A DNA stretch of 64,000 nucleotides from an uncultured Candidatus Saccharibacteria bacterium (GCA_964399865.1 CAYNRJ010000001.1:475984-539983); one strand, 5' to 3'; shown: positions 5,118-64,000, counted from the stretch's first letter. The notes: a model not told the origin generated them from the letters alone. Made by a program: numbers and translations.

Positions 5118-5254
5118 ACGTAGTAAAAAACTTAGTCTTTAAATAATGATTTTAGTGTAGCACTGGATGAGACGTGCGAGCGGCCAACTTCTTTCCGTTG
5201 CATATCTCCGATTTCGTGGTTAAGTATTCGAAGTCAGAACGCCAGGAGGGCACG

Positions 5255-9563: not shown

Positions 9564-9566
9564 AGA

Positions 9567-11923: not shown

Positions 11924-11930
11924 GTACCAG

Positions 11931-13151: not shown

Positions 13152-13252
13152 TCAATTAATTATAGCGCGCAAAATCTCAAAGAAATGTCTGATGCAAAAT
13201 AAATGTGCAAACATTGAAATGCATTTTCAAATTCAAAAGCGAGGGGTACTGC

Positions 13253-13333
13253 TCTCTGAGGGTCTTCGCAGGCGCGACGGCGCCGAGACCGAGCGCTGCA
13301 CCAGCAGGCGCAGATAGCGACCCGAGGAGAGTA
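13253..13333. repeat. GC-rich ~80-nt intergenic element, copy B
   Basis: Near-identical to 8025-8103; terminal stem here is CTCTC/GAGAG, a compensatory change relative to copy A; lies between pilC and pilB. Confidence 0.7.
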
Positions 13334-13350
13334 GTACTCTGAGCGCCCCC

Positions 13351-15120
13351 CTATTCAGAAATAACGCGGAGCACCTCTTCAATCGAAGTAAGGCCTTGTG
13401 CTGCTTTGAAGATTCCGTCTTCTGCCATTGTGAGCATCCCTTCGCTCTTCGCTTGCTTCTCGACTTCCGCCGCAGTTGCACTCTTCATCACGAGCTCTCG
13501 AATGGTTGGAGTGACTGATAGAATTTCGTAAATACCCTTTCGTCCTGCGTATCCTGTTGGACTTTGCGCACTTTCCTTTGGACGATAGAACGGTACGTTT
13601 TTCCATGTCGCATCTTTTGAAACAACTTTTTCTTCCTTGAGCGCACGAAGAACCGCACCTGTATCTATCATCTTTTCTAAATGAGCCTGCTCGTCGCGCG
13701 AGAGTTCGTACTTCTCTTTCTCGGGAGTAAGGACTCGCACAAGACGCTGACCAATTGCGATGCGGAGAGTTGAGACCAAGAGAAATGGCTCGACTCCCAT
13801 ATCTAGTAGACGCGGTATAGCTCCCGCAGCGGAGTTCGTGTGGAGTGTCGAGAGGACGAGGTGACCTGTGAGGGCGGCGTTAATAGCAAGAGAGGCAGTC
13901 TCCTTATCGCGGATTTCTCCCACCATCACGATGTCTGGGTCCTGACGCACGAGAGAGCGGAGACCGTTGGCAAATGTGAATCCGATCTCAGGACGAACTT
14001 GCGTCTGATTTATTCGTTTCATCTGGTATTCGATAGGATCCTCGATCGTTGAGATGTTTACGTTCGGCGTATTTACGATATCGAGGAGCGTGTAGAGCGT
14101 CGTTGATTTACCAGCGCCTGTCGGACCACAGGCGAGCACCATTCCTGTCGTTGCGCGCATCGCTTCGTGCATGCGATCGAGTCCTACCCCATGAATACCT
14201 ATAGATTCCAATGTGAAACCTGAGATCGAGTCCCGCAGGAGTCGCATGACGATTTTCTCTCCGTAATACGTTGGAAGGACAGAAACACGGAACGAAATTT
14301 TCTCGCCAGCGGACTCTGCTCCGAAACGTCCGTCCTGTGGCAGGCGATGCTCGTCGAGACGCATGCTCGCTAACACTTTTATGCGCGCAGTGATCGCGGC
14401 GGCAGCATGCTTCGGCAGCTCCATTGCGTCGTGAAGAATGCCGTCGATGCGGTAGCGTATAAGTAGAGCGGTTTCCATCGGCTCAATATGTATATCTGAT
14501 GCACCTTGGGCATTCGCGTGACGGATAAGAGTATCAACGACACGCACCGCCGACGCACCCTCAGCCATCTGACGGAGGTCTTCTTCTTTTGTCGGCGCTC
14601 CTCCTTTCTCAAGTGCGGCCATTTCGCGCTCGATCACAGAGCCAAGATTATCCTTGAGCCCCTGCTGATACTGCTTCAGCGCGTATTTGATACTCGCATC
14701 ATCCGTAAGACGTGGGAGGATCTTGAGCCGTGTCTTCTTTTTTATGAAATCGATCGCGGCAAGATCATCGGTATCAAGCATCGCAACCTCAAGCTCATCG
14801 CCGCGGTGACTGTACGCGATGATGTTGTTACGTCGTGCGATAGGCTCGGGAACTAAAGAAAGTGTTTCGTATTTGATGTCAGTTCCCGTGAGAGCGACGA
14901 AAGGAATTCCGAGAATGTACGCGTACGTTCGGCGGAGTTCATCCTCCCCTATTACATTGTGCGCCTTTAAAATGTCGCCAACTGGTTTACCAGATTCTTT
15001 TGCCTCTTTTTCTGCGCTATCAAATGCTTTTGCAGAAACTAACCCTGCATCAGAGAGAAATGATTTGAGATGAGTGTCGCTTATATACATAGCGCTGGTT
15101 TCATTAAAAGTATACCTCAT
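13351..15120 (-). CDS. pilB: Type IV pilus assembly ATPase PilB (GspE family) with N-terminal GSPII_E_N domain
   Basis: 589 aa; Walker A 'GPTGAGKSTT', 'DIVMVGEIRD' Walker B/Asp box, His box, C-terminal tetracysteine-like region. Confidence 0.85.
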   Translation of the reverse strand: MRYTFNETSAMYISDTHLKSFLSDAGLVSAKAFDSAEKEAKESGKPVGDILKAHNVIGEDELRRTYAYILGIPFVALTGTDIKYETLSLVPEPIARRNNIIAYSHRGDELEVAMLDTDDLAAIDFIKKKTRLKILPRLTDDASIKYALKQYQQGLKDNLGSVIEREMAALEKGGAPTKEEDLRQMAEGASAVRVVDTLIRHANAQGASDIHIEPMETALLIRYRIDGILHDAMELPKHAAAAITARIKVLASMRLDEHRLPQDGRFGAESAGEKISFRVSVLPTYYGEKIVMRLLRDSISGFTLESIGIHGVGLDRMHEAMRATTGMVLACGPTGAGKSTTLYTLLDIVNTPNVNISTIEDPIEYQMKRINQTQVRPEIGFTFANGLRSLVRQDPDIVMVGEIRDKETASLAINAALTGHLVLSTLHTNSAAGAIPRLLDMGVEPFLLVSTLRIAIGQRLVRVLTPEKEKYELSRDEQAHLEKMIDTGAVLRALKEEKVVSKDATWKNVPFYRPKESAQSPTGYAGRKGIYEILSVTPTIRELVMKSATAAEVEKQAKSEGMLTMAEDGIFKAAQGLTSIEEVLRVISE

Positions 15121-43629: not shown

Positions 43630-44772
43630 TTAGAATGGGTTTCGAGGACCGTTACGTATTTCGAAGTGGACGTGGGGACCCGTGGTCTTTCCGGTAAGAC
43701 CTACGTAGGCGATCACCTCGCCTTTAGCAACAGATTGTCCTACTGACACGACTACACTTGAAGCGTGTGCATAGAGGGTCTGGCTACCGTTGCTGTGACG
43801 AATTACAACATATGCACCATAACCACCGTTCCAACCTGAGTTACGAGCTACGATGACATCGCCATCGGCGGAAGCGAGAATTGGCGTACCGATAGGAGCA
43901 GCGAGGTCAACACCGTTGTATCCATGGATACCCTGAGTGCGGACACCACCGGAGAGAGGGCGCATGTAATAGCCGGCAGATATTGAACTGTTTACGCTTC
44001 CTCCTCCAGAGACTGAGGTTGAGCGTGGAGCAACGGCAACCTTTACTTCGCCGTCCGGAATGATTATTTGAAGCCCCACAGCGAGAGCTGATTCATCAGA
44101 AAGACCGTTGAAACTCGCGATTTCCTGAGCATCACCGCTAAAGTTCTTCGCAATTGATGCAAGAGTATCGTTCTTCTTAACGATGTATTTAACCCCTGTT
44201 ACAGGGAGAATTGTTAGGGTTTGACCAACGCGGATAGTGTCTCGAACTGGGATGTCGTTCGCCCAACGGATGGTGTTTGCGGATACTCCAAACATCTGGG
44301 CAATACCGGAAATCGTGTCTCCCTCTCGTACCACATAGATACTGATAGTGGAGTTTTTAGCTTTCTCGATGTCGGCCATGGTGCCTGATGGGCCTTCTTC
44401 GGGTACAAGAGCTGAATTGTCTACGATTGTGATCTCTCCACCACCTCGAGCTGGAGTTGGGGATATGTTCATCGCGGGTCGCAGAAGCGCCATCGTTTGC
44501 ACGTTGCCGGAGGCCGCCGAATGAAGCTCGCCGCCCTTATTACCCTTGATTGTAGCCACAATACCGCCAAAAAGACTGGCCCGCGTGGTCGCGGGCATAA
44601 AGGTTCCAGCTATAAGAATGAGGGAAACGAGCACTACGAAATAGGTACGCAAGTTTCCCGCAATTGCGGAATTTCGGGGTTTCTTTGTCGTTCTATAGGA
44701 GCTTGCCGGGCTCGGATAGAAGTCTTGTGGGATGTTTTCGATAAGCCATTTAGGCCTTCCTCCATAGCTCAC
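43630..44772 (-). CDS. LysM-domain M23-family peptidase (cell-wall hydrolase/activator)
   Basis: N-terminal TM; two LysM repeats ('YVVREGDTISGIAQMFGVSANTIRWAND', 'YIVKKNDTLASIAKNF'); C-terminal M23 domain with 'HVHFEIR'. Confidence 0.8.
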   Translation of the reverse strand: MSYGGRPKWLIENIPQDFYPSPASSYRTTKKPRNSAIAGNLRTYFVVLVSLILIAGTFMPATTRASLFGGIVATIKGNKGGELHSAASGNVQTMALLRPAMNISPTPARGGGEITIVDNSALVPEEGPSGTMADIEKAKNSTISIYVVREGDTISGIAQMFGVSANTIRWANDIPVRDTIRVGQTLTILPVTGVKYIVKKNDTLASIAKNFSGDAQEIASFNGLSDESALAVGLQIIIPDGEVKVAVAPRSTSVSGGGSVNSSISAGYYMRPLSGGVRTQGIHGYNGVDLAAPIGTPILASADGDVIVARNSGWNGGYGAYVVIRHSNGSQTLYAHASSVVVSVGQSVAKGEVIAYVGLTGKTTGPHVHFEIRNGPRNPF

Positions 44773-50001: not shown

Positions 50002-51593
50002 AAACAAGCTCCCTCATTTTCATACCGTTTAAGTTTGCTATCGCAACAATTACTCTGTTTCTCTTACTGACCTCTTTCGCTCAAGCTCAAACAGATACCT
50101 CAACCACCACTGCAGGATTATCGAGCTCAGGTATATTCGACTGCAACAGTAAAGCCGGAGCTGAGGCGATGAGCAGTGTCGGAACAAAAAGCACGATTCA
50201 AAGCTTATATGTCCCAGTTTCTGACGCAGGAGTAACCTTAAACACCGGATCTTTGGTCTACAAGGAATGTGTTCTCGACCCTATAAACACGCGCATGCGA
50301 GAGAACGCTGCTTTCTCGCACGTTCAACTCGGCATAAAGGCGTTTAACAAGGGGGCTGATGGTGAACCAATGTTTATAAAAGATTACATCGCGAAAGTTT
50401 CGGAGCGCAGCGACAAAACATTCCTACGTACATTTGAAGAAGGGGAGCTTGATACACTCAATCCAGCCTTTAAGGATGAAGTTAAGCGCGCGATCGCTGA
50501 AGATTATAAAACTCAGACCCGTGAGCCGAACAAGGTACTAGAATGTTCGTACAAAGGCGATCTCGCAAAAGTATACGCAGGACAACCGGAAGATATTTGG
50601 GGAGCTATCATGGCCATTGCAGAGCCAGCATGTAATCCGGTTGGAGCTTACAATCTCGCGCAAGAATATATTATAGACAATATCGCATCAGATAAGGAAG
50701 AGATGCTCTTCCGCCTTAATAACAGCAACGCCATCAAAGATGTCCAAACATACAACGAGGAGACCGGGCGATACGAGACCCTCACTCCAGGTATCATCGT
50801 TGCTGAAAATGTTCAGCAACTTATAACATCCGGCTTCCGGCAACTTGAGAACGCCGACGAGATAGGTCAAATGGTTGATGCGCTATATTCTGGCCTCTCC
50901 ACACAAGTAGTTTCCGATACTCGAGGACTCGCGGGAGTAACCGAAGGATTCGCTGGCCAGCCTTCTTATCTCGACCAAATTGGTGACACGCTCCGCAAAA
51001 ACCTTCGCGATGCAGCGGTTAATATAGCTTTGGGAATTCTAAAAGGCGCGAAGCAAACCGAGATTACCTATTTCAATGCATTGAATTCGATTGCACTTAC
51101 CCTAACGGCAACGATAGGGGATCTTCGCCAGGCAGAAGCACTATGTTGGGCAGAAGTAGTACCAAAAGCTCAAGTCTATGCAAGTGCAAATAATATTCAA
51201 ATAACCGTTGCTACTTCAACCCAATTTTCACAAGCGGTTATCAATGCACAGATAACATCTCTCGCTTCAACAACGATAACGGATATACGAAAGAGTGAGA
51301 CCGCTCTCTCCCTCATAGATCATTTAATAGAGGGCATTACGAACACGACTTCTCCGGATGCCCAGCGTGTAGCTCTTCAACAGTTAGATTCTCTCGTGGC
51401 ACAAGGAGCCCTACACGGAGAATACGATGCCCAGCAGGCAGTGAAGCGAAGAGATGAGATAAAGCCGGCAATGGAAAATCTCGTGGAAGATACGGTTGTA
51501 GCATGGGCTGATTCTGCTGACGTAAATGTCGGCTGGTGTAACGTCAATAATCCTGCGGTCGCCCAAAAATGGGTCGAGGAGTGGAGAAACTGA
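49998..51593 (+). CDS. Secreted protein (signal peptide), unknown function, T4SS-like operon
   Basis: 'MKTSSLIFIPFKFAIATITLFLLLTSFAQA' signal peptide; 531 aa; 4-nt overlap with the upstream gene. Confidence 0.55.
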   Translation: MKTSSLIFIPFKFAIATITLFLLLTSFAQAQTDTSTTTAGLSSSGIFDCNSKAGAEAMSSVGTKSTIQSLYVPVSDAGVTLNTGSLVYKECVLDPINTRMRENAAFSHVQLGIKAFNKGADGEPMFIKDYIAKVSERSDKTFLRTFEEGELDTLNPAFKDEVKRAIAEDYKTQTREPNKVLECSYKGDLAKVYAGQPEDIWGAIMAIAEPACNPVGAYNLAQEYIIDNIASDKEEMLFRLNNSNAIKDVQTYNEETGRYETLTPGIIVAENVQQLITSGFRQLENADEIGQMVDALYSGLSTQVVSDTRGLAGVTEGFAGQPSYLDQIGDTLRKNLRDAAVNIALGILKGAKQTEITYFNALNSIALTLTATIGDLRQAEALCWAEVVPKAQVYASANNIQITVATSTQFSQAVINAQITSLASTTITDIRKSETALSLIDHLIEGITNTTSPDAQRVALQQLDSLVAQGALHGEYDAQQAVKRRDEIKPAMENLVEDTVVAWADSADVNVGWCNVNNPAVAQKWVEEWRN

Positions 51594-51601
51594 TCTTGCA
51601 T

Positions 51602-54142
51602 ATGGAATACCTAAAACGAATGCTAGGACATCATAAAATAGGAATACTTGCGTCACTCTTCATCGCAATCGTGTTCTCCCCCTTTGTATTCAGTAATAAC
51701 AGCTTCGAGGTAAGCAGCGCGCTGGCAGCAACTCCTGAGGAAATCGCCGCAAGCGAAGGATTTCAAGCAATAATGGCAAACGTTCCGGCAGAAAATCTTG
51801 CCGCCTTCAACGGGTGCTTACAAAACCCTCCAAGTGGTCCATCGATCAATGAAAAACCTAAAGAGGGGCTCGCACTTTTTGCGAGCTATTGTTATGACCT
51901 CACTGTGGGCGAGCTACCTGACGAGTTAGTGCCGGGTTTTAAGCCACCCGAAGGCTATGTGGGCGGATGTGGCCTCAACTTTGGTTGTTATTGGAAAAAA
52001 CTCGTTGCAACCATTGCTTGGATACCGTCTGGACCAAGCGCATGGCTCCTTACTACTGTAGGGCAGTTCTTCAATTACCTCGTCGATCATACTATTATTG
52101 ACTTCAAGGGGACCTTAGAACAAATGGGGGAGAGTATTGATAATGCATGGACTGCATTCCGAGATATTGCGAACATTGTCATCATCGGAATGTTTGTATT
52201 CATTGCTCTCTCTCTAATCCTCGGGCTCAAGGAATACGGCGAGCGGAAAATGATAGCGCGCGTACTCATTGTTGCGGTGTTAATCAACTTCAGCTTACTT
52301 TTCACAAAGTTAATTATCGACGCTTCACACTTTACTGCGTATCAGTTCTACAATGCAGCTGGGAATATTGGTGGCCCCGTTGCCGACGAGGCCAGAGCTG
52401 CGGTTGACATTGAAGACGAAACAATTCCTGCGGCGGAGCCAGGTATCGCAGGTCAATTCTTAGCTGCTATGAGTATTACCCGGGTTGGGGAGATACATAA
52501 CATACTTTTTCAGATGCAGCAGAATGGTAATGGGATGTGGAACACAATACTCTTTGGCTTTTTTATGGGCGTTATGTTTCTCCTTGCTGCACTTGTGCTC
52601 TTATACGGCTGTTTCTTACTGATTGCACGGGGGCTACTCTTAGTATTTCTGATGATGACGGCACCTCTTGCTTTCGCGAGTTGGCTCATCCCCAAATTCG
52701 CAGGAGATGGTTGGAGCAAATGGTGGGATTCACTCTTACGCACTGCGATATTTGCACCTCTTCTGATGATTTTCTTGTGGGCTTCTCTCACTATAGCGAC
52801 TCAAATCAACGAGGCAGGCGAGGGACTGGGAGCGCTGATCGATCATCCTGAAAACGGCATCGGTATCGGGGCTCTTTTCAACTATGTCTTCGTGCTTGGG
52901 TTGCTTTTCATGTCCATAAAACTTGCAAGCAAATTCTCCGGCACAATTGCAGGATTCAGCGTCGCTGCAATGGCTACTGCCGCACCAATCACTCTCGGAT
53001 CGCGAGCGCTCGCAGCTCCACTCCGCGGTATCGGAGGTAAATATGCAACCAAATATCAAGAAAGTCGTATGGATCAAGCAAAGGCCGCTAGAAGGAACGT
53101 CGGGGTCGCTACTGGACTTAGAACGAACGCGTTGAAAGCTGCGCACGATTTCCGAGAAGCTGGTCTGCATGGCTTTGCAGATAGGGAACAGGCGGAGGCT
53201 AAGAAACAACAAAAGATTGCGGAGGAACAGAAGAAAATTGCGGCAATCAAAACAAAACGCGCGATGCGAGGTGCGACAGTTGCCGGGAACAAGATGAATC
53301 TTATGAATACTGAGACCGCTAAGAAGGTGCTCGGGGCAGTGGGGGTTACAGGGTTCATGGCTGGAGCGACGCCAAAGGAAGTACAGAGTTATCACGGAAA
53401 AATTGAAGAGAGAGCCAAGGCGGCGGAGAAAATTGCATCAAAACTTGCTCCAAAGCAAGAAGAAATCGATAAAGCGCGGGATCTTGCGGGAGACAGAATG
53501 AAAGAACAGCGCAAAATTGAAGAGGCACAACTGGAGGCAACAAGAAGGGTGGCTGAGGAGGAGGCCAATAACACAAAGGCTCTTGAGTATTTGCCTGAGC
53601 AATTGGAAACTGCCATTCGAGAATCTACACGAGTTAAGGCAGACGCTGCACGAAATAAGACTGCGATCGATGCCAGTAGGAGGGCAGGCACTATAAGCGC
53701 AGATGAACATCAACGACAATTAAGGATCGAGAATGATCGTGTTAAAGCCGCAGACGCCGCCGTAAAAACTGTTAAAGATCGCATTGACGTTATCGATCAG
53801 CCCGTGAAAGATATTGCAAAAAATATCGAAAAGTTCCGTGGAGAAACAAAAGGTGCAATCGAGAAAGCCAAACATGAAGGGGGTCAGGCTGTTGTAGAGA
53901 GCGGAGCCGGGGTAGCCGAAGTAATCGGTCGACGGTACGGAGGTACTCTGACTCGTATAGCTGGAGCCCTTACTGGAGCCAATGCTCACGTCGCTCACGA
54001 AACGAGAGAAATGTACCTTAAGAATCGCGGTGCGATGAATAAATTAAAGGATATTCTTAAGGGTGCAGGTGTTACGGAGGGAGAAGCTGCGCATGGAGGG
54101 GGCTCAGCACCTGCAGGGGGCGGGGGAGGCGATCATCACTAA
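51602..54142 (+). CDS. Polytopic membrane protein, VirB6/TrbL-like, with a long Lys/Ala/Glu-rich coiled-coil C-terminal tail
   Basis: ORF 51569..54142 (start 51569 or 51602); at least 8 hydrophobic helices in residues ~200-480; an extracytoplasmic Cys-containing loop (GGCGLNFGCYWKK); C-terminal ~350 aa of KAA/EEQ coiled-coil ending GGGSAPAGGGGGDHH. Sits two genes upstream of the VirB3-like + VirB4 pair, as in Gram-positive T4SS. Confidence 0.55.
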   Translation: MEYLKRMLGHHKIGILASLFIAIVFSPFVFSNNSFEVSSALAATPEEIAASEGFQAIMANVPAENLAAFNGCLQNPPSGPSINEKPKEGLALFASYCYDLTVGELPDELVPGFKPPEGYVGGCGLNFGCYWKKLVATIAWIPSGPSAWLLTTVGQFFNYLVDHTIIDFKGTLEQMGESIDNAWTAFRDIANIVIIGMFVFIALSLILGLKEYGERKMIARVLIVAVLINFSLLFTKLIIDASHFTAYQFYNAAGNIGGPVADEARAAVDIEDETIPAAEPGIAGQFLAAMSITRVGEIHNILFQMQQNGNGMWNTILFGFFMGVMFLLAALVLLYGCFLLIARGLLLVFLMMTAPLAFASWLIPKFAGDGWSKWWDSLLRTAIFAPLLMIFLWASLTIATQINEAGEGLGALIDHPENGIGIGALFNYVFVLGLLFMSIKLASKFSGTIAGFSVAAMATAAPITLGSRALAAPLRGIGGKYATKYQESRMDQAKAARRNVGVATGLRTNALKAAHDFREAGLHGFADREQAEAKKQQKIAEEQKKIAAIKTKRAMRGATVAGNKMNLMNTETAKKVLGAVGVTGFMAGATPKEVQSYHGKIEERAKAAEKIASKLAPKQEEIDKARDLAGDRMKEQRKIEEAQLEATRRVAEEEANNTKALEYLPEQLETAIRESTRVKADAARNKTAIDASRRAGTISADEHQRQLRIENDRVKAADAAVKTVKDRIDVIDQPVKDIAKNIEKFRGETKGAIEKAKHEGGQAVVESGAGVAEVIGRRYGGTLTRIAGALTGANAHVAHETREMYLKNRGAMNKLKDILKGAGVTEGEAAHGGGSAPAGGGGGDHH

Positions 54143-54852: not shown

Positions 54853-55353
54853 ATGCAATTTCAGGTACCACAATTCATCGAGGTGGAGGATAAAATCTTC
54901 GGTCCTCTCACATTCAAGCAATTTGTGTATGTCGCAGGAGGAGCCGGGGCAGCCTATCTTTTTTGGCGAACCCTCCCATTCTTTTTTTCCGTCCCCCTCA
55001 TCATGGGGATTGGAGCCCTTGCCGCAAGCTTAGCCTTCTTTAAATACAACGGGCGCCCTTTTATTCTCGCGATGGAGCATGGCTTCTACTATCTTGTACG
55101 AACAAAACTATATTTGTGGAACAACGCGGCAAAAACTGCAAAACCTAGGAAATTAGCGACGAAAGCGACACTACCTACTAGTCAGGTATATGTGCCTACA
55201 CTTTCACAAAGCAAATTACACGAACTGGCATGGAGTTTGGACATTAAAGAACGTATTGCAGGAGGCACCGTTTCAAGCGAAGAGCGAGAAGCGGCCGCCC
55301 CGACAGATAGCATCGTCGCTCCAATACGCACCGCCCGCGATGCGAGAGTATAA
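54853..55353 (+). CDS. Small two-TM protein, VirB3/PrgI-like (directly precedes the VirB4 homolog)
   Basis: 166 aa; 'FKQFVYVAGGAGAAYLFWRTLPFFFSVPLIMGIGALAASLAFF' hairpin of two helices; position and topology as for VirB3-family proteins. Confidence 0.5.
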   Translation: MQFQVPQFIEVEDKIFGPLTFKQFVYVAGGAGAAYLFWRTLPFFFSVPLIMGIGALAASLAFFKYNGRPFILAMEHGFYYLVRTKLYLWNNAAKTAKPRKLATKATLPTSQVYVPTLSQSKLHELAWSLDIKERIAGGTVSSEEREAAAPTDSIVAPIRTARDARV

Positions 55354-55358
55354 AATCT

Positions 55359-56045
55359 ATGCCACCAGGACTTGAAAACTTACGCGACAGAAAGAAATCC
55401 ACTCAAGATTTCGTGCCCGTGCGTGAAGTGCGGGATGGAGTCGTCGTACTTAAGGATGGAGGATTACGCGCAATTCTTCTCGCATCTTCTCTTAACTTCG
55501 CACTGAAATCAGAAGACGAACAGACTGCGTTCATCACGCAATTCCAAAGCCTTCTAAACTCACTGGATTTTTCTGTGCAGATTTTCATAGAGTCTCGCAT
55601 GCTCGATATAAGACCTTACATTGCAACTCTCGAGGAAGCATATAAAAAGCAGCTCGACGATCTGATGCGAATCCAGATCCGTGAATATATAGAATTCATC
55701 AAGAGCTTTACTGAAGCTGCAAATGTCATGACAAAGAACTTCTTCGTCGTCGTGCCGTATTCCGGCGGTCCACAGATCGGCAAGAGTGGGGGAGGGCCCT
55801 CACTCCCATGGAGCAAAAAAAAGAACAGCACTGAGGAGGCGAACAAGAGCTTCGAAGAGCAGGTGACTCAGCTCGAACAAAGAGTATCTGTCGTGCAGCA
55901 AGGTCTGATCCGCACAGGTGTCCGCACTGTTCAGTTAGGAACCGAGGAGGCAATCGAGCTTCTCTACAAAATGTTCAACCCTGGCGAAGAAGGGAAACCG
56001 ATGTCACTTAACAATACCGAAGAGGCGCCCGCGACCAGCCAATAA
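55359..56045 (+). CDS. VirB4/TraC/TrsE-family protein, N-terminal portion (ends at an in-frame TAA)
   Basis: 'QDFVPVREVRDGVVVLKDGGLRAILLASSLNFALKSEDEQ' matches the conserved N-terminal region of VirB4/TrsE-type ATPases; the ORF stops at TAA 56043-56045 and the next ORF starts 3 nt later in the same frame. Confidence 0.65.
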   Translation: MPPGLENLRDRKKSTQDFVPVREVRDGVVVLKDGGLRAILLASSLNFALKSEDEQTAFITQFQSLLNSLDFSVQIFIESRMLDIRPYIATLEEAYKKQLDDLMRIQIREYIEFIKSFTEAANVMTKNFFVVVPYSGGPQIGKSGGGPSLPWSKKKNSTEEANKSFEEQVTQLEQRVSVVQQGLIRTGVRTVQLGTEEAIELLYKMFNPGEEGKPMSLNNTEEAPATSQ

Positions 56046-56048
56046 TGT

Positions 56049-57998
56049 ATGGGATTTAAAGACTTACTGCCATTTGGAAAGAAACCAACGCCGCCCGAGG
56101 CGCGAGTTCTTCCTGTGTTACCTGAGGAAATATACGAAACGGGAGTTCTTGACCTCCAGGATGTCATCGCACCGCACGCACTCCGTGTTAATTCACGTGA
56201 GCTCGACCTCGGCGAGAAGATCGCGCGAACTTTTTTCGTGATCTCTTACCCCCGCTTCCTCACGACAGGATGGTTCGCCCCGATCATCAACATGGACAAG
56301 GTCTTGGATATTGCCATCTACGTCCACCCGATGGACACAAATGAGATGCTTCGAAAGTTCCAGAAAAAAGTGGCTGAGGTGCAGAGTCAGATATCGACAC
56401 GTGAAGAGAAGGGGATGGTGCGAGACCCTATGCTCGATACTGCATACAGCGACTTGGAAACTTTGCGTGACTCTCTGCAGCAGGCACAGGAGCGTATTTT
56501 CGAAGTGGGATTGTACTTAACAATTTACGGTAATACCCGCGAGGAAATCGATAAGGTGGAATCTGAGGTGCGTTCAATTCTCGAATCGCGTCTCGTATAC
56601 ATTCGTCCTGCACTATTCCAACAGGAGAGTGGGTTCAGAAGTGTCTTGCCGCTCGCTACCGATGAGCTTGATGTCCATACAAAACTCAACTCCGCTCCTC
56701 TCTCTTCGATCTTTCCATTCATATCATTCGACCTTACGAGCGATCGCGGCATCCTCTATGGCGTCAACCGCCACAATTCTTCTCTCATTCTCTTCGATCG
56801 TTTCTCGATGGAAAACTACAACTCGGTCACCTTCGCAAAATCCGGTGCCGGCAAGTCGTACATGACCAAGCTCGAGATATTGCGATCTCTCATGTTCGAA
56901 ACCGAGGTTATCGTAATCGACCCAGAACGCGAGTACGAATATCTCGCAGAAACAGTGGGCGGGCGATACTTCAACATCTCACTCTCCTCTGAGCACCACA
57001 TAAATCCATTCGATCTTCCTGTCCCTCGCGAGGATGAAAACCCATCAGATATTTTGCGCAGTAACATCATTACTCTCGTAGGACTTTTCCGCATTATGCT
57101 CGGGGGCCTTACGCCTGAAGAAGATGCGATCATTGATAAAGCCATAACCGAAACCTACGCATTGAAAGACATCACACCGGACGCGAACTTTGCCGCAATA
57201 GAGCCACCGCTTCTCTCTGACTTTGAACTGGTACTTTCCGGACTAGAAGGATCGGAGTCGCTCGTCGCTCGTCTTTCTAAATATACGAAAGGAACTTGGT
57301 CGGGATTCATGAATAGACCAACGAACGTCGACATGAATAAGAGATTGATTGTTTTCTCGGTCCGCGACATGGAGGATGACTTGAAACCAATTGCGATGTA
57401 CATCATCACACATCACATTTGGAATGCGGTTAGGAAAGAATTGCGTAAACGTCTTCTCGTCATCGATGAGGCGTGGTGGATGATGCGTTCAGAAGATACC
57501 GCATCATTTCTCTATTCCGTTGCTAAACGAGGACGTAAATACTATCTCGGAATTTCAACCATTACCCAAGACGTATCCGACTTCCTCAATTCGCCGTATG
57601 GAGTTCCGATGATAACTAACTCTTCTATCCAAATACTTCTACGCCAATCTCCGACATCCGTTGACCTCGTGCAATCAACATTTAAATTATCCGATGAGGA
57701 AAAATACCTCCTGCTTGAATCCGATGTGGGGGAGGGAATATTCTTTGCGGGCCTTAAACACGTAGCGGTAAAAGTTATCGCATCATACACAGAAGATCAA
57801 ATCATCACGTCCGATCCATCTCAGGTTCTCGCGATCAGGAAAGCTAAGAGGGATCTTGAAGATGCAAATTCAGGTGAAGCACCCCCGCTTCCAGAGGTCA
57901 AAAAAATCCCTGAAATGCCGGATCGCCCAGTTGCGCCCCAAACCCCAGCCGTTCCACCCGCACCAAACATCGCGCCACCCAAAGACATGGCAATATGA
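56049..57998 (+). CDS. VirB4/TraC/TrsE-family T4SS ATPase, central and ATPase portion
   Basis: 649 aa; Walker A 'TFAKSGAGKSYMTKLEI', Walker B 'RLLVIDEAWWMM', 'GISTITQDVSDF' helicase-like motif; in frame with and contiguous to the 55359 ORF, the two together being about 877 aa (typical VirB4 length). Confidence 0.75.
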   Translation: MGFKDLLPFGKKPTPPEARVLPVLPEEIYETGVLDLQDVIAPHALRVNSRELDLGEKIARTFFVISYPRFLTTGWFAPIINMDKVLDIAIYVHPMDTNEMLRKFQKKVAEVQSQISTREEKGMVRDPMLDTAYSDLETLRDSLQQAQERIFEVGLYLTIYGNTREEIDKVESEVRSILESRLVYIRPALFQQESGFRSVLPLATDELDVHTKLNSAPLSSIFPFISFDLTSDRGILYGVNRHNSSLILFDRFSMENYNSVTFAKSGAGKSYMTKLEILRSLMFETEVIVIDPEREYEYLAETVGGRYFNISLSSEHHINPFDLPVPREDENPSDILRSNIITLVGLFRIMLGGLTPEEDAIIDKAITETYALKDITPDANFAAIEPPLLSDFELVLSGLEGSESLVARLSKYTKGTWSGFMNRPTNVDMNKRLIVFSVRDMEDDLKPIAMYIITHHIWNAVRKELRKRLLVIDEAWWMMRSEDTASFLYSVAKRGRKYYLGISTITQDVSDFLNSPYGVPMITNSSIQILLRQSPTSVDLVQSTFKLSDEEKYLLLESDVGEGIFFAGLKHVAVKVIASYTEDQIITSDPSQVLAIRKAKRDLEDANSGEAPPLPEVKKIPEMPDRPVAPQTPAVPPAPNIAPPKDMAI

Positions 57999-59059
57999 AA
58001 AAGGCAGCAGCGCCATTCCTATTTCTTGCGCTTATTTTTTTCTCACTGCTAGTGCCCAGCACTCCTGCCCACGCTCAATTAGTGTTCCCCGGGACAACAC
58101 CAGATCTCGCTCTTGAAGCAGTGCCCGAAAACCCTCGACCGAATTCAAACATTACTCTTCGGATAAGAAGTGTGCTGCTCGACCTCACCCAAAGCGAGAT
58201 CACGTGGTACGTGAATGGCACTGTTACAAGTACTGGTATTGGGATTACTGAAACTAGCGTAGCAACGGGAGCGCTGGGAACAGAGACCCGGGTGCGTGTT
58301 GAAGCAATTGGAGAAGCAGGGAGCGCTTTTGCCGTTGGGGTATTTCGTCCTACTGACATAGATCTTCTGTGGGAGGCTGATTCGTATGTGCCCCCATTTT
58401 ATCGAGGTCGCGCGCTTCCATCTGCGGGAAGTACCGTTCGCTTATTTGCGGTACCTCGATTTACGAGAGTCGGATCTACTTCCTTTTTACCATCGAGTGA
58501 ACTCATGTATACCTGGAAAAGGAACGATCAAACTATTCCAAAGGCATCTGGCTTCGGAAAAGACACGGTCCAAATTGAAACGTCCATTATATCGAGCGGC
58601 GACGTTATATCCGTAGAAATAGCAACCGCAGACGGGATACTGGAAGGATCTGCTTCGGTACGGTTACCTTCGGTAGAACCTTCTCTCGTGTTATACGAAA
58701 ATCATCCAGTCTTCGGGGTTCTGTATCACCGTGGATTGCAGAGCCCTGCCTCAGTCACTGAGTCCGAAACAACATTTATAGCTGTTCCGTATTTCGCGCC
58801 TACTCGAAATCCTGATAACGGGTCACTCATTTATAAATGGCGGGTTGGTAACTCATCTATACCAAGCAGTTTTACGAAACCTAGCGCAATCACAATCAAC
58901 GCAGAGGGAACAAATGGTGTAGCTCTCATACAGCTCGCCGTTACACACGCGTCGAATTTCTTACTGAACATACAGAACGCATGGGCCGTGACTCTCGCTG
59001 GAACAGACACATCAACCACTGTGAGTCCTTTCACGGACCCTTTCACAAGTGGTGAATAA
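57995..59059 (+). CDS. Secreted beta-rich protein (signal peptide, Ig-like repeats), T4SS-like operon
   Basis: 'MKKAAAPFLFLALIFFSLLVPSTPAHA' signal peptide; 4-nt overlap with the VirB4 stop. Confidence 0.55.
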   Translation: MKKAAAPFLFLALIFFSLLVPSTPAHAQLVFPGTTPDLALEAVPENPRPNSNITLRIRSVLLDLTQSEITWYVNGTVTSTGIGITETSVATGALGTETRVRVEAIGEAGSAFAVGVFRPTDIDLLWEADSYVPPFYRGRALPSAGSTVRLFAVPRFTRVGSTSFLPSSELMYTWKRNDQTIPKASGFGKDTVQIETSIISSGDVISVEIATADGILEGSASVRLPSVEPSLVLYENHPVFGVLYHRGLQSPASVTESETTFIAVPYFAPTRNPDNGSLIYKWRVGNSSIPSSFTKPSAITINAEGTNGVALIQLAVTHASNFLLNIQNAWAVTLAGTDTSTTVSPFTDPFTSGE

Positions 59060-60317
59060 TACTATGCGTATACGTATACCGACATCACTCCTCCGTTACA
59101 CTCTGATACTTCTTGTTGTTTTACTATTTGGCATCCTCTTGTGGTGGTATTTCTTCCTCGGAGCCAAACAGGATTCACTGGAAGCGACTGATGACGGAAG
59201 GGGAGCAGGAGTAGAGGCGCCTTCTTTCGGAAATGCGATCGGGAGCACGTACGGCAATATTGTTTCAAGCATAGGAGCGGCCATATCAAACACGAGCGAG
59301 GAAGAGCCTGCCGCTCCACAAACAACCCCGCCTTTATGGCATGCGGCGAAAAGCCCTGTGGCAGGCGCAAGCTTTATTTTAAATGGAACTACGACCGCAA
59401 TCCGCTTCGTAGAACGAGGTACGGGATACGTTCTGGAGGCAAATCCTGAAACAGGGGAGCTTACTCGCATCACGAACACCCTCATACCACGCGTATACGA
59501 AGCTTACGTAGGAGCTAATGGAAGTCTTATTTTGCGAAGCCTGGATGAGGCTGACAATATCGTAACGAGTGCCGGACAAATAGTTGCAACAACTTCTGAA
59601 GATGTCGCACCAAAGCCCCTAGCTTTGCGTCAATTACCCTTAAACATTCGTACGATCGCTCTGCACCCCGAAGGAGAAGAGGTTTTTTATATTGAACCCG
59701 GATACTCTGTGGAAGACGAGTATTCCATTGTTCGGGCCGCATGGAACGGCACCGCGGTTAAACGTATCGGTACGGTGGGTATTTCGGGTTGGCAAGCAAA
59801 GTGGCTCTCCGACGATCGAATAATATTGACACAGAATGCAGGCGGCACATCGAATTATGCATATGAATTAGCGGCAAACGGATCACTCGTGCGCCTCGCA
59901 AATCCCGCAGGCGGACTAGTAGTACTACCTCGTCCAAACTCTAAAGCGTTACTCTATGGCAGTGCCTCGAACGGCTTCCTCCTTTCAGTTCTCACAGATG
60001 CAAACGCGGATCCCAAGACACTTTCTATCCGCACCACCGCTGATAAGTGCGTATGGTCGCCTAGCGCTGTTCTAATTGTGTACTGCGCAGTCCCACAAAC
60101 TCTACCAGGAGCAGATTTCCTAACCGCTAGAGCGCAGGGGACAGAACATACTGCCGACACCTGGTGGAAAATCGATATACGAACAGGTAGAGCAGAAATT
60201 TTACCCGTCGAAACTATGCCTCAAGTGGATGTCGAGAATCCTATAATGGATCCGTCTGGGAAATACCTACTATTTACGAACAGTCGCGATAAATCGCTTT
60301 GGTTGGTACGTATCTAA
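59049..60317 (+). CDS. Membrane-anchored protein with a beta-propeller-like (TolB-like) extracytoplasmic domain
   Basis: TM 'LLRYTLILLVVLLFGILLWWYFF'; repeated beta-strand blades ('GTGYVLEANPETGELTRITN', 'GKYLLFTNSRDKSLWLVRI'); the start may be at 59064. Confidence 0.5.
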   Translation: MVNNTMRIRIPTSLLRYTLILLVVLLFGILLWWYFFLGAKQDSLEATDDGRGAGVEAPSFGNAIGSTYGNIVSSIGAAISNTSEEEPAAPQTTPPLWHAAKSPVAGASFILNGTTTAIRFVERGTGYVLEANPETGELTRITNTLIPRVYEAYVGANGSLILRSLDEADNIVTSAGQIVATTSEDVAPKPLALRQLPLNIRTIALHPEGEEVFYIEPGYSVEDEYSIVRAAWNGTAVKRIGTVGISGWQAKWLSDDRIILTQNAGGTSNYAYELAANGSLVRLANPAGGLVVLPRPNSKALLYGSASNGFLLSVLTDANADPKTLSIRTTADKCVWSPSAVLIVYCAVPQTLPGADFLTARAQGTEHTADTWWKIDIRTGRAEILPVETMPQVDVENPIMDPSGKYLLFTNSRDKSLWLVRI

Positions 60318-63300
60318 AGTATATGAGCACGACACTTACTCTGAAGAAAATATTGGTCGGCGGCGCTCTTGTACTACCGTGTCTCATTAGCACGTTCACC
60401 CTCTCCCTTCCTTCTGTCGAGGCAGCGGACATATCTCCTTCGTGTGCTGATCGAGCAGACGGATTCATCCCGCTTGCGTGTGTCGATAATACTGTACTTG
60501 GAGATTTATACGCCACGGGTGATGTTGCGCCCGATGCGGAATTTAGTGGAAATCTTACCGACTACGTTGGAAGAATATTCTTCTTCGCTATCACAATCGG
60601 GGGAGTGCTTGCAGTCCTTCGTGTTGCCTGGGCTGGGTTCTTATACATAACAAGTGATCTGTGGCACACAAAGGAACGCGCGAAAGAGATGCTACGGGAA
60701 ACCGTACTCGGACTCTGTCTTTTGCTTTCAGTCTGGCTTATCTTGAACCAGATCAACCCGCGGATTCTAAGTCTCGACTTTAATTTCACACCGCCTGCGG
60801 AAGATGTCGGGGCAGATGATCCTGATTCACCTGGACCTGCCACTCCACAGCCAACCCAGGCACAGATGCGAGTGATGCAGACCTTGGGGACCTACCGATC
60901 TTCGTGGAACCTCTCACCACTACCAGCTCAGAGTTGCGCCTCTCCAACTTCACTATCGATGGGTAATTACCTTTGTTTCGAAAGCTGGCATCACTGCGAA
61001 GCGGTTGCTGAGGTAGAAGGCGCTAGCTGCACATTTACGCCGACCGCCGAGATCCCAAGCCCATTTTTTGATCCTACCCTCGGACCGAACGGGGGATACT
61101 GGCGCCCAACTATAGTCATTTGGAACGGTGACAGATACCATTCTGAAGAGGATTGTCTTGCGGCTAGACCCCAATACAACGAATGCGAATCTGTCGCATA
61201 TGATGCTCCCATAGGCACATACTACCCGAACGCCGAAACCCCACCTGGCTGGTGTTATTTAGATACATGGTTACCAGATGGCAAATATTGTGACCCTTCG
61301 TGGACTGAAGATGCGTGCCGCGCAGCAGGGAATGCTTACGGCTCAAACATCGGAAGCCGGTGCGATGAGTCTGGCACCGAAAATTCTTATGTTAGTACAT
61401 ACACCGAGATACAAAATGATTCACTAACTTCGGGCGCGCCGCGATATTGCATTCTAGAGTCCGGTGCATACCGCTGCTTCCTTTCCTCAGAGAGCTGTAA
61501 CGAGGCAGGCGATGACTGCTATAGAATCGGGAATTGGGAAGTGAAGCTTAATGGAGTTACGGCCATTCTCGATACGAGAGGTACTGTGAACCGATTTCAG
61601 ACCGCAGCGCTTAGTTGGGAGCCGTCCGTTGGGGCGGATCCGTCTGTAATTGAAGACGCTCGTGAATCTTTTAGAAATTACTGCGAGACTAGGGCAAGCG
61701 CTACGTACGTTGCGGCTGAGGGAAATGAAACCCGTGACTTCTGCCCAGTCTCCATTCCTGGTCCGAATACCGAAAATTTCTACACCTCATGGAATGCGGT
61801 TCCCGAAAACAAGTGGTGCTACAACCCTGTCGGCACTGAATTTTATTGCCCCGGTAACGAAAATGCGTGTATAGCTGCGGTCGCAGAAATTGGATATACA
61901 GACGTTTCCTGTGAATACAAACCTGCGAGATCAACAATAACTCAACCTGGCTTTGTATGCGGACAAGGCGGGCCAAACCAATTCTATTGCGGATTTAAAA
62001 ACGTCGCAGCATGCGCCGCATACGACACTCCACCTCTTTCTAATTGCGCACTAATACCAGAAATTCCTGACCCTACCTACACATACGCGCCGGCAAATCC
62101 AAATCAAACTGATCCGCCACAGACAAATACCCCAGAAGAAGTGGGGGCCGACCCAGCAGTCACCTATGACAGTAACGTTATACATGACACCCCGATTCTC
62201 GGATACACATGCTACCTACTATCAACCTCAAGATACCAATGTTATCGAGGAGGACCGATTGCTAACCCACCACCGCACTCACAGGCATTCAGTCCGGGAC
62301 CGCTGACTGGGTATTACTGCTTCTCGATGAACAACACATCGTCTCCGTATTACAGTTGTTACACGGGAGCGATAACGTGCGCTCAAGCTGCACAAGCAGT
62401 TGGTAAAACATGCGCCCTCGCATCTCTCCTGCGAGAACCAGGTCCGACTTTACAATGGAGTCAATCGCCGCGCTTAGAACAATATTGTTTCGCAGCAAAT
62501 GAGGGCGGATATGGATGTGTCGCAAATGAAGCGGCATGTAACACTTTCGCTGTCAGGGAAGGGAAAACCTGTACCCTTGCGACATTAAGAAATCAAAATG
62601 GTAGTACGGTGAGCACGCCCGCATCACAACCCGGAGTAGGATTACCTCCTCCAACGAGAACGGGGGCTACGTCCGTAATTCCATCGGCGGAAACGCCAAC
62701 CGAAACACTTGATGAATTACCTCCAAAAGACAACGTGTCGTTGTGGGGTCGCGCAATACAACGTCTTTTTGAGCTATGGGAATTACTACGACATCCTTCC
62801 GAATGGACGGCTGAATTCCGACAAATGGTGGAAGGTTTCCTAGGTCGGGAAGAGGAAACAACTATTGAAGCTGAGGTTGTAAATCCTCCAGCGGAGCAAC
62901 CTGTTGCTCAAATATCCACGCCGCCTAACACTCCTGTTGCTCAAACATATCCCTATTTCCAGCTCCCGGCAGGACAGTGGTGTCATAGGGTAGAGGGAAG
63001 TAATCCTCGCGCATATCAATGTTCCGGGGTGCGCGCCGCCTGTGAGGAAGGCGGCCAAACCTGTTTCCGAGCGGATGCGGCATCAACAATCCGTTCCGCA
63101 TCAGGAGGATCCGTGAGCTCTGCGATTGCGGCGGGCGGAGGGTATTGCACCGTACTTACTAGAGGAGTAAGCAACGCGATGTACTGTGGTTTCGCATCTG
63201 CCGAATCCTGTACTGAGTTTGTTCTAAATTCGAGCAGCCAAACTCAGACGACGACATCTTGTGACACTTATTGTCCAGCAGAGCTTCAAGCAGGGGCCGC

Positions 63301-63514
63301 ATCTCAAGGGGCAACGTATCAATGCAATATTACAGTCGGATCCTGGTGTTATGAAATATCGAAACCGACAAGCGCAACAACATTTGGCAGACGATATCAT
63401 TGCGCCGTAAATGAAAATATCTGTAACACTGCTCGCTCAGCGAACAATCCCGCGCCGATCAATAACAGCACCTGTCTTCAGTTTGGACCTTACGGACCTA
63501 CCCTTACGTCTTGA
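60299..63514 (+). CDS. Giant cell-surface protein: N-terminal VirB2/TrbC-like pilin module (signal peptide plus 2 TM helices) fused to a ~900-aa ectodomain made of about 10 cysteine-rich repeat modules
   Basis: Signal peptide '...LPCLISTFTLSLPSVEA'; 'YVGRIFFFAITIGGVLAVLRVAWAGFLYITS...RAKEMLRETVLGLCLLLSVWLILNQI' matches TrbC/VirB2 hairpin topology; repeats of the form [YWF]-x-C-x(7-11)-C-x(4-6)-C-x(7-14)-C (e.g. YLCFESWHHCEAVAEVEGASC, QYCFAANEGGYGCVANEAACNTFAVREGKTC). An alternative start lies at 60323. Confidence 0.6.
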   Translation: MVGTYLKYMSTTLTLKKILVGGALVLPCLISTFTLSLPSVEAADISPSCADRADGFIPLACVDNTVLGDLYATGDVAPDAEFSGNLTDYVGRIFFFAITIGGVLAVLRVAWAGFLYITSDLWHTKERAKEMLRETVLGLCLLLSVWLILNQINPRILSLDFNFTPPAEDVGADDPDSPGPATPQPTQAQMRVMQTLGTYRSSWNLSPLPAQSCASPTSLSMGNYLCFESWHHCEAVAEVEGASCTFTPTAEIPSPFFDPTLGPNGGYWRPTIVIWNGDRYHSEEDCLAARPQYNECESVAYDAPIGTYYPNAETPPGWCYLDTWLPDGKYCDPSWTEDACRAAGNAYGSNIGSRCDESGTENSYVSTYTEIQNDSLTSGAPRYCILESGAYRCFLSSESCNEAGDDCYRIGNWEVKLNGVTAILDTRGTVNRFQTAALSWEPSVGADPSVIEDARESFRNYCETRASATYVAAEGNETRDFCPVSIPGPNTENFYTSWNAVPENKWCYNPVGTEFYCPGNENACIAAVAEIGYTDVSCEYKPARSTITQPGFVCGQGGPNQFYCGFKNVAACAAYDTPPLSNCALIPEIPDPTYTYAPANPNQTDPPQTNTPEEVGADPAVTYDSNVIHDTPILGYTCYLLSTSRYQCYRGGPIANPPPHSQAFSPGPLTGYYCFSMNNTSSPYYSCYTGAITCAQAAQAVGKTCALASLLREPGPTLQWSQSPRLEQYCFAANEGGYGCVANEAACNTFAVREGKTCTLATLRNQNGSTVSTPASQPGVGLPPPTRTGATSVIPSAETPTETLDELPPKDNVSLWGRAIQRLFELWELLRHPSEWTAEFRQMVEGFLGREEETTIEAEVVNPPAEQPVAQISTPPNTPVAQTYPYFQLPAGQWCHRVEGSNPRAYQCSGVRAACEEGGQTCFRADAASTIRSASGGSVSSAIAAGGGYCTVLTRGVSNAMYCGFASAESCTEFVLNSSSQTQTTTSCDTYCPAELQAGAASQGATYQCNITVGSWCYEISKPTSATTFGRRYHCAVNENICNTARSANNPAPINNSTCLQFGPYGPTLTS

Positions 63515-63523
63515 GGTTTGCCT

Positions 63524-64000
63524 TTATTCAGCAGCGTACTTGATAACGACGCGGCGATTTCGTCCCTCACCTTGAGATTCCGTTTTGATATTTGGTGCGC
63601 CAGAGAGAGTTGAGTGGATGATGAGACGTTCGTATGAACTCATCGGTGTAAGCTCCACATCGTATTGAAATGACCGCGCTCTTTCTGCCATCATCAGCGC
63701 TTTTGTCTGGAGATCCTTTATCTGTTTCGTCTTATACTCATTAACATCAACGAGGAAGTGGAGAGGTCCGCCCCCGTGTGAATCTGCCCCTTCGGAAGGA
63801 GCCGGGGCTGCAGCCTCTTTATTCTTAGGGAATAGCTGTTTCTCTGCGATCTTTTTAACTAGCATATCGAGCGCCTGCAACGTGTCTCCACGCATACCGA
63901 TAAGCGCACGGCCGTCTCCCGCCTCTATGGAAAAGATAACCTGACCTGCTATTTCACTCTTTGTAATACCAGAGAAGGGGACACCGAGCGCAGTGAGAAG
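63524..64000 (-). CDS. khpB: KhpB/Jag (EloR) RNA-binding protein, KH plus R3H domains; 5'-partial (N-terminus beyond the window end)
   Basis: C-terminal R3H 'LTPMSSYERLIIHSTLSG...IKTESQGEGRNRRVVIK'; reading the frame upstream of the listed Met gives a KH-like 'ALIGMRGDTLQALDMLV' with no stop up to the window edge. Confidence 0.65.
   Translation of the reverse strand, partial: LLTALGVPFSGITKSEIAGQVIFSIEAGDGRALIGMRGDTLQALDMLVKKIAEKQLFPKNKEAAAPAPSEGADSHGGGPLHFLVDVNEYKTKQIKDLQTKALMMAERARSFQYDVELTPMSSYERLIIHSTLSGAPNIKTESQGEGRNRRVVIKYAAE

Follow-up and report, generated by a model that had tools for sequence, protein, structure and literature searches.

Pilins of the PF18895 family of type IV secretion systems (T4SSs) are expected to be small stand-alone proteins. 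What, then, is a PF18895 protein of 1071 amino acids (aa), and what may the long tail following its pilin core be for? The gene is found at positions 60299-63514 (plus strand) of a 64,000-nucleotide stretch of DNA from an uncultured Candidatus Saccharibacteria bacterium (GCA_964399865.1, CAYNRJ010000001.1:475984-539983), hereafter called the window. A preliminary description had read it as a VirB2/TrbC-like pilin hairpin fused to about ten novel four-cysteine (four-Cys) repeats. The predicted protein is a T4SS pilin in which a C-terminus normally of roughly 10-30 residues has grown to 917. With moderate confidence, it is proposed to be a VirB2-like pilin of the chromosomal, origin-proximal Patescibacterial T4SS, exposing outside the ultra-small cell a chain of mini-domains that diverge fast, are probably stapled by disulfides and most likely serve in host contact.

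Hydrophobic stretches are found by hydropathy analysis at aa 12-40 (the signal peptide), 88-118 and 130-154, the last two being separated by the basic loop SDLWHTKERAKEMLRE. The AlphaFold model, obtained with an alignment of 24 homologs, is a helical hairpin formed by aa 86-118 and 122-152 (predicted local distance difference test score, pLDDT, 80-88). The core is organized as helix 1 (86-118), the basic loop HTKERAK (119-121 plus flanks), helix 2 (122-152) and a terminal LNQINPxILxLD motif. The signal peptide and the two hydrophobic helices around a short basic loop anticipated in the preliminary description are thus borne out. The sole Pfam match of the whole protein is PF18895 (T4SS_pilin), at aa 85-150, with 31.5 bits against a gathering score of 26.6; no other Pfam family was matched at E up to 1. 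The isolated core (aa 39-164) matches PF18895 at 36.1 bits. A search with the same segment retrieved 24 proteins (E 2e-22 to 6e-16, 38-59% identity), all 116-207 aa long, from assemblies denominated Candidatus Kaiserbacteria, Paceibacterota, Minisyncoccia or 'Patescibacteria group'. The profile of these short pilins matches the 60299-63514 open reading frame (ORF) with 121.5 bits (E 1e-36), and 24 columns are invariant in the core alignment (A2), LNQINP among them.

Gene order is equally informative. In 33 loci, identified by a pilin-alignment scan of one genome per species, the order g49998, VirB6-like, g54148, PrgI, TrsD-like, VirB4, g57995, g59049, pilin and jag is kept as far as contigs extend, and each locus features exactly one pilin ORF. 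The same order, continuing through yidC, rnpA, dnaA and dnaN, is found in two relatives bearing the four-Cys module (L035 and L036), which brings the loci to 35. Because gene order is conserved in all of them, the 60299-63514 ORF is read as the positional ortholog of the one, normally small, pilin of the operon (usually 115-275 aa in relatives). The conserved position therefore argues that it is not an unrelated protein with two helices by chance and, together with the PF18895 score, speaks against an ordinary signal-anchor. By profile, topology and context the predicted protein is a member of PF18895, and only its size (1071 aa) departs from the expectation for the family.

The ORF described in the preliminary account is present, as an uninterrupted 3.2-kb frame of 1071 codons from a TTG, stop included. 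The true start is probably the ATG at 60323, which gives a protein of 1063 aa. The TTG overlaps the upstream gene by 19 nucleotides (nt), whereas the ATG is located 5 nt past its stop. The protein initiated at the ATG begins with MSTTLTLKKILVGG, and up to the cleavage site reads MSTTLTLKKILVGGALVLPCLISTFTLSLPSVEA↓AD, a standard signal peptide ending in SVEA↓AD. Its N-terminus agrees with that of the nearest ortholog. The ATG is favored because of this spacing, of the signal peptide and of the match to the ortholog.

The 917 residues following the core are acidic and Cys-rich. The protein includes 52 Cys (4.9%), against 0-1.1% in the other genes of the T4SS cluster. The regular expression C-x(6-18)-C-x(4-9)-C-x(5-18)-C identifies 10 non-overlapping units in the tail, against 2.0 +/- 1.1 (maximum 6) in 2000 shuffled tails. 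With a stricter pattern including flanking aromatics, 8 units are found, against a shuffle mean of 0.085 (maximum 2). A profile hidden Markov model (HMM) of the module finds 11 copies, ten complete and one reduced to a half-module. The count of about ten repeats in the preliminary description is thus confirmed, as are the two other features attributed to the tail, Pro/Thr-rich linkers (27-37% Pro+Thr+Ser) and an acidic, helix-prone segment at about aa 800-860. Asp and Glu residues in the ectodomain outnumber Lys and Arg by 92 to 47. The protein ends ...GPTLTS, without a sorting signal.

Modules are 13-37% identical to one another. In the alignment of 24 modules from at least nine proteins, exactly four columns, those of the Cys, are invariant. 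Cys1 is flanked and Cys2 preceded by aromatic residues, and Cys3 lies within a stretch of small residues or rich in Ala. In the AlphaFold model of module 7 (pLDDT 79.8) the topology is strand-strand-helix-strand (EEHE), the helix holding Cys3 and strands 1, 2 and 3 holding Cys1, Cys2 and Cys4, respectively. Each module would thus fold as a roughly 40-residue beta-hairpin/helix/strand mini-domain with two disulfides. Pairing is probably Cys1-Cys2 and Cys3-Cys4, because half-modules keep either Cys1 and Cys2 (638/648) or Cys3 and Cys4 (286/296). The repeats match no NCBIfam or PHROG family, and the tail has no sequence match in the Protein Data Bank (PDB) at E up to 10. Foldseek gave no significant match for the modelled module, the best rows being Greglin, SPINK1 and ovomucoid. 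Known Cys-rich extracellular domains such as EGF, TNFR or Kazal are therefore matched by the repeats neither in sequence or profile nor, for the modelled copy, in fold. The novelty claimed for the repeats is in line with these searches, and the module plausibly represents an unannotated, previously undescribed family of Cys-rich mini-domains.

Different origins have been considered for the array. A foreign insertion has been rejected, as GC and GC3 content of the tail resemble those of the neighbors. Recent tandem duplication or amplification has been similarly rejected: DNA repeats within the ORF do not exceed chance matches of 15-24 nt, and modules are divergent. A diversity-generating retroelement target has been rejected for the window, as no template-like repeat of the ORF is found elsewhere in it; no reverse transcriptase was matched among the roughly 45 larger window ORFs that were scanned.

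The distribution of the module was monitored by running a profile of the ten modules exhaustively against 1.84 billion representative proteins. In addition to the protein itself, P0027 (350 aa), P0028 (405 aa), P0029 (215 aa) and P0030 (287 aa) were found. Each consists of the same pilin hairpin followed by one to five modules. One or two modules are also found at the end of four of the 24 short homologs (P0008, P0012, P0020 and P0024), and none in non-pilin ORFs of the window or of 94 loci. Two further matches, P0026 and P0031, are near-perfect tandem repeats lacking a pilin domain. P0026 (477 aa, module-profile E 1e-19) is made of nine near-identical 53-aa repeats, each C-x11-C-x8-C-x7-C. 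Both have been treated as unrelated or unresolved, and set outside the module family. A word-indexed search with the 24-module alignment gave nothing usable, as modules this short and divergent are poorly served by a word index. By the credible matches in the searched data, the module is confined to pilin tails. The architecture had been presented as one not described in established T4SS families. This holds for the literature searched, in which no description of C-terminal tails or grafted modules on VirB2-like T4SS pilins was found, but not for the databases, where unannotated relatives carry one to five modules on the same pilin. The 1071-aa protein is best seen as the extreme of a series of module-bearing pilins, not as unique. 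What seems new is the module on a VirB2-like T4SS pilin; the pilin family is known, and its shorter module-bearing members had gone unannotated.

Tails vary sharply among relatives. Among 85 related pilins, a somewhat redundant set drawn from genomes and metagenomes, the tail past the conserved QINP motif has a median length of 26 aa, and is at least 60 aa long in 28. The next longest tails after the 917-aa one measure 270 aa (L035/P0028) and 224 aa (L036/P0027), and tail-less orthologs end 8-20 residues past the NQINPxILxL[DN] motif. VirB4 makes a poor clock, since its identity is 84-92% in nearly all of the set (L002-L094). Identity across these loci is about 35-69% for the pilin core and about 28-64% for g59049; the VirB4 ATPase looks unusually frozen relative to the extracellular parts. 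By faster-evolving neighbors, the closest relative is L035 (g57995, g59049 64%, pilin core 65%, VirB6-like 50%), yet BLAST aligns nothing of its pilin past aa 171. The relatives nearest by g59049 identity (L035, L005/L056, L036) all bear modules, which suggests that the array is a lineage-specific expansion. In other lineages pilins end in tails of another kind, about 170-185 aa long and containing 4-8 Cys (L046/L047, with the pilin ORF at 4833-5717, L051, L055, L048). These match nothing in Pfam or the PDB, except for a weak VanY match in L048 (E 0.016, below cut-off). Tails in L051 and L055 end H.PGNSVVDI...HWHV, read as resembling motifs of LAS-type peptidases. Variation in this conserved machine is located in the tail, which differs sharply in both length and content between relatives.

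How may such a protein work? After cleavage of the signal peptide the two helices would insert in the membrane with the basic loop HTKERAK on the cytoplasmic side, corresponding to the lumen side in a pilus, and the N-terminus and the whole tail would end up outside. The prediction is based on the positive-inside rule and on the position of the loop in the solved T- and N-pili, in which its positively charged residues face the lumen (bioRxiv 10.1101/2022.04.28.489814). An extracytoplasmic location also fits the Cys content of the tail. If the core assembles like VirB2, TraM or TraA pilins, tails would project radially as strings of beads, forming a brush around the conduit. T-pili have five subunits per 13.9-angstrom rise and a diameter of 80 angstroms (bioRxiv 10.1101/2022.04.28.489814). 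Assuming VirB2-like packing, arithmetic from these dimensions gives an outer surface of about 690 square angstroms per subunit. One roughly 40-residue bead could be accommodated at the base and more further out, and a radial brush is conceivable. A compact globular domain of 97 kDa per subunit would not fit, and tandem mini-domains joined by flexible linkers would suit the constraint. The tail would most likely serve in contact with, or recognition of, the surface of the host cell, as suggested by rapid divergence and changes in copy number in the surface organelle of an obligate epibiont. A role as spacer or shield is the second possibility. We infer polymerisation of the pilin, retention of the tail and adhesion; the terms 'disulfide-knotted' and 'adhesin on a filament' are to be taken in the same sense.

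Several observations weigh against the proposal. No second pilin gene is found in the window, the profile of the 24 short pilins matching no other ORF, and a tail-less pilin is therefore missing there. Homology to classical VirB2/TrbC is not claimed, as sequence comparisons failed to establish it. PF04956 (TrbC/VirB2) does not match the 1071-aa protein at E up to 1, and weakly matches only three of 18 relatives (best E 0.059). Aligned by hhalign to five annotated VirB2/TrbC proteins from MPF_T plasmids, PF18895-type pilins place helix 1 on helix 1 with a probability of 1.6%. No pilin was found among PDB sequences with the pilin profile, and Foldseek comparison of the hairpin with the PDB gave only generic helical hairpins (best E 1.9), a result that cannot test VirB2 likeness. 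Of the pilin assignment made in the preliminary description, a T4SS pilin stands, by the above-cut-off PF18895 score and the conserved operon position, but a relationship to PF04956 is not demonstrable. The label VirB2-like is used because of topology, operon context and the structure-based annotation found in the literature (PMC10633639, PMC12102498). A tail of roughly 97 kDa on every subunit would make about 90% of the filament mass, and dense packing of tailed subunits is questionable. Experiments or structures showing polymerisation of PF18895 proteins are absent from reviews of these systems. Scanning of the window revealed no oxidoreductase of the Dsb or VKOR type. No ligand has been identified for the tail, and adhesion is argued from architecture and variability.

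Other explanations have been compared with the one proposed. The gene might be an artefact, resulting from mis-assembly, from frameshift fusion of the pilin to a downstream gene, or from pseudogene decay. A word-indexed search with the whole protein retrieved only the protein itself from 5.8 billion clusters, and no full-length homolog of comparable length, which would be in keeping with this. Yet the identical 1071-aa protein is recorded on three contigs from two sources, NCBI and Logan, and one Logan contig, when read back, gave exactly the same translation. Moreover the 3.2-kb frame is open throughout, GC and GC3 of the tail agree with those of neighboring genes, relatives have no separate gene between pilin and jag, and many other assemblies also contain pilins bearing this module. 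An artefact is accordingly hardly conceivable. Metal binding by the four module Cys, as in a Zn(Cys)4 mini-domain, in place of disulfide formation is also very unlikely. CxxC knuckles are missing, the spacings between successive Cys are highly variable (8-17, 6-8 and 6-17 residues), half-modules with two Cys would not bind Zn, and the predicted location is extracytoplasmic. In addition, Kazal domains, a classical disulfide-bonded type, occur in another secreted protein of this genome.

In another reading, the hairpin would be a mere two-helix membrane anchor, or a non-polymerising accessory of the T4SS, and the tail a coat or adhesin of the cell surface beside the machine. By the estimate from T-pilus dimensions, a VirB2-type filament could accommodate a 917-aa tail on each subunit only with difficulty. 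Monoderm T4SSs are normally devoid of pili and use surface adhesins (PMC12102498), and according to the literature no pilus has been imaged for Patescibacterial T4SSs. However, the core is as conserved as in tail-less orthologs, with the same invariant columns, which argues that the ancestral job is kept. The gene is also the only pilin gene of its operon, the composition of which does not differ from that in short-pilin relatives. The anchor is therefore regarded as a serious but unlikely alternative. Cleavage of the tail after export, either releasing a soluble Cys-rich protein or maturing the pilin, would have its analog in classical systems, where TrbC and VirB2 are trimmed at the C-terminus. 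The strictly conserved NQINPxILxL[DN] motif is found directly before every tail, whatever its content, and an acidic Pro-rich linker follows this boundary. But tail-less orthologs also terminate shortly past the motif, which then belongs to the core and is no specialized cleavage site, and no protease gene is associated with the operon. Removal of the tail is thus improbable, and a pilin that keeps its tail is preferred to both.

A broader hypothesis is advanced only tentatively. The exposed C-terminus of the pilin might be a general display platform in the Paceibacteria/Kaiserbacteria-type lineage, tails being the host-specificity determinant of the T4SS, and the array described here would build a bottle-brush pilus or sheath. 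The platform would range from no tail to one to five four-Cys mini-domains, other domains of about 170 aa, and up to the 917-aa array, and the bristles would be a previously undescribed disulfide mini-domain. The Patescibacterial T4SS is conserved, origin-adjacent and essential in one species tested, and its function is unknown (PMC10633639, PMC11665869, PMC12857230). VirB2-like pilins are the feature separating it from other monoderm T4SSs. If the lineage varies the tail instead of keeping arrays of paralogous pilins, selection would seem to act on the outer end of the pilin. A defined 40-residue module and a predicted disulfide map offer experimental handles. Natural variants with 0, 1, 3, 5 and 10 copies of the module make the role of the pilin in host contact testable, and bear also on whether a VirB2-type assembly can carry cargo.

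The features of the operon and of the protein are listed in Table 1.

Table 1. Coordinates of the T4SS operon genes and of the segments of the tailed pilin, numbered from the first nucleotide of the window; residues are counted from the TTG
Feature	Position	Strand	Evidence
VirB6-like polytopic membrane protein, coiled-coil tail	51569..54142	+	sequence; syntenic in all loci
PrgI / VirB3-like	54853..55353	+	PF12666, E 5.8e-11
TrsD-like, free-standing VirB4 N-terminal domain, 228 aa	55359..56045	+	NF041427 E 6e-8 and VirB4 models, all below cut-off
VirB4 ATPase	56049..57998	+	PF19044 E 1e-24, AAA_10
Two conserved secreted/anchored proteins directly upstream of the pilin (g57995, g59049)	57995..60317	+	
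Whole ORF, 1071 codons from TTG / probably 1063 aa from ATG 60323	60299..63514	+	frame, contig copies, ortholog N-terminus
Sec-type signal peptide, aa 9-42: MSTTLTLKK / hydrophobic core / SVEA↓AD	60323..60424	+	hydropathy, sequence reading, ortholog N-termini
Mature N-terminal extension, aa 43-84, Cys49/Cys61 pair, GF[IV]PLA motif	60425..60550	+	motif common to P0006, P0028-P0030
Pilin core, aa 85-171	60551..60811	+	PF18895, own pilin profile, AlphaFold
Acidic Pro-rich linker 1, aa 172-204	60812..60910	+	
Four-Cys module 1, aa 205-250	60911..61048	+	42.0 bits
Degenerate module, aa 266-302, Cys3/Cys4 only (C286, C296), R and H at Cys1/Cys2 positions	61094..61204	+	sequence reading
Four-Cys module 2, aa 311-361	61229..61381	+	40.0 bits
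Four-Cys module 3, aa 376-413	61424..61537	+	27.3 bits
Non-repeat insert, aa 414-498, one Cys pair (C462/C482), no family match	61538..61792	+	
Four-Cys module 4, aa 499-544	61793..61930	+	39.7 bits
Four-Cys module 5, aa 546-589	61934..62065	+	30.1 bits
Pro/Thr-rich linker, aa 590-629	62066..62185	+	
Half-module, aa 630-653, Cys1/Cys2 only (C638, C648)	62186..62257	+	7.9 bits, profile positions 2-23
Four-Cys module 6, aa 666-711	62294..62431	+	42.6 bits
Four-Cys module 7, aa 722-764, copy modelled by AlphaFold	62462..62590	+	42.2 bits
Pro/Thr/Ser linker and acidic amphipathic segment, aa 765-886, no family match	62591..62956	+	
Four-Cys module 8, aa 887-928	62957..63082	+	35.0 bits
Four-Cys module 9, aa 942-994	63122..63280	+	26.2 bits
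Four-Cys module 10, aa 1002-1065, extra Cys pair C992/C1009 before it	63302..63493	+	31.8 bits
jag (R3H), convergent	63524..63895	-	yidC, rnpA, dnaA, dnaN beyond in related loci

Of the two proteins encoded directly upstream of the pilin, the 354-aa one has a signal peptide and the 422-aa one is anchored at its N-terminus. Both keep their place in every locus, neither is matched by a Pfam or NCBIfam family, and both are candidate uncharacterised envelope components of the T4SS. The L035 ortholog of the TrsD-like protein is PF26593 TraC-like. VirB4 appears split, its N-terminal part being encoded separately at 55359-56045 as in MPF_FATA systems. No relaxase or coupling protein is found in the T4SS cluster. 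In the identical Logan contig yidC and rnpA follow jag. By gene order in related loci, the pilin gene would lie about 2 kb from the origin region, in agreement with the origin-proximal location of Patescibacterial T4SSs (PMC12102498). An ORF at 43630-44772 (minus strand), 3.5 kb upstream of the T4SS block, encodes two LysM domains and a Peptidase_M23 domain; LysM/Peptidase_M23 domains are often carried by Patescibacterial VirB1-like proteins (PMC12102498).

The remaining window is ordinary core chromosome (RecJ, PGK, TIM, NusA, ClpP, RNase Y, PNPase, UvrD, RsmA, type IV pilus genes). The type IV pilus block (8118-15120, minus strand) encodes a PilB-like ATPase (13351-15120), a PilC-like platform protein (11931-13151), a 587-aa CarboxypepD_reg/SpaA-like protein and two ORFs without matches. 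The second Cys-rich secreted protein (3402-5117, minus strand; 571 aa, 28 Cys, 4.9%) is unrelated to the pilin module. It includes PG_binding_1, PKD and Kazal_1 domains, a Pacifastin-like stretch, PKD_4 and a second Kazal-like segment. Its composition indicates that classical disulfide domains are exported, possibly as protease inhibitors. A 287-aa ORF at 5174-6037 (plus strand) has as sole Pfam match the DnaA N-terminal domain (E 1e-11), and lacks ATPase and DNA-binding domains.

Among known systems, the closest are the PF18895 pilins of Patescibacteria, as the essential array of Southlakia epibionticum (PMC10633639; survey in PMC12102498), which belong to the same Pfam family. VirB2-like pilins of these T4SSs are essential, and their role is unknown (PMC10633639, PMC12102498, PMC12857230). 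They share with the tailed pilin the signal peptide and the two-helix hairpin, and their genes are similarly chromosomal, close to the origin, and located beside PrgI/VirB3, TrsD, VirB4 and VirB6-like genes in a cluster lacking relaxase and coupling protein. They are small, however, and frequently organized in Saccharimonadia and Microgenomatia in arrays of 2-11 divergent paralogs, whereas here one pilin gene is found per operon, and variation resides in the C-terminal tail. The classical VirB2/TrbC/TraM/TraA pilins (PF04956 and relatives) of T-, N- and F-pili have the same order of signal peptide, helix, basic loop and helix, and the same operon partners, VirB3, VirB4 and VirB6. In the solved pili the basic loop lines the lumen, which would put the tail of the present protein outside. 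In contrast, sequences are not significantly related, the envelope is here of the monoderm type, and classical pilins lack an ectodomain.

Functional modules are grafted on pilins in the bimodular type IV pilins PilB and PilC of Streptococcus sanguinis, and, among chaperone-usher pili, in FimH, the two-domain tip adhesin of type 1 pili. A polymerising pilin module carries in these a functional module on its exposed end, but pilin folds and assembly machines are unrelated, and a single globular domain replaces the long tandem array. Type IV pilins feature moreover a prepilin-peptidase site (class III signal peptide, G↓F/M-T-L-x-E), which is absent from the N-terminus of the tailed pilin (MSTTLTLKKILVGG...VEA↓AD). 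The mini-domain shares its predicted hairpin-helix-strand topology with small EEHE disulfide-rich domains such as Kazal-type inhibitors. No PrgB-like adhesins have been reported in Patescibacteria (PMC12102498). Separate T4SS adhesins, either VirB5/TraC tips in diderms or PrgB-type proteins in monoderms, have a proposed role in contacting target cells, as the tail might have. These are polypeptides of their own with unrelated folds, whereas the putative contact domain is here fused to the pilin itself.

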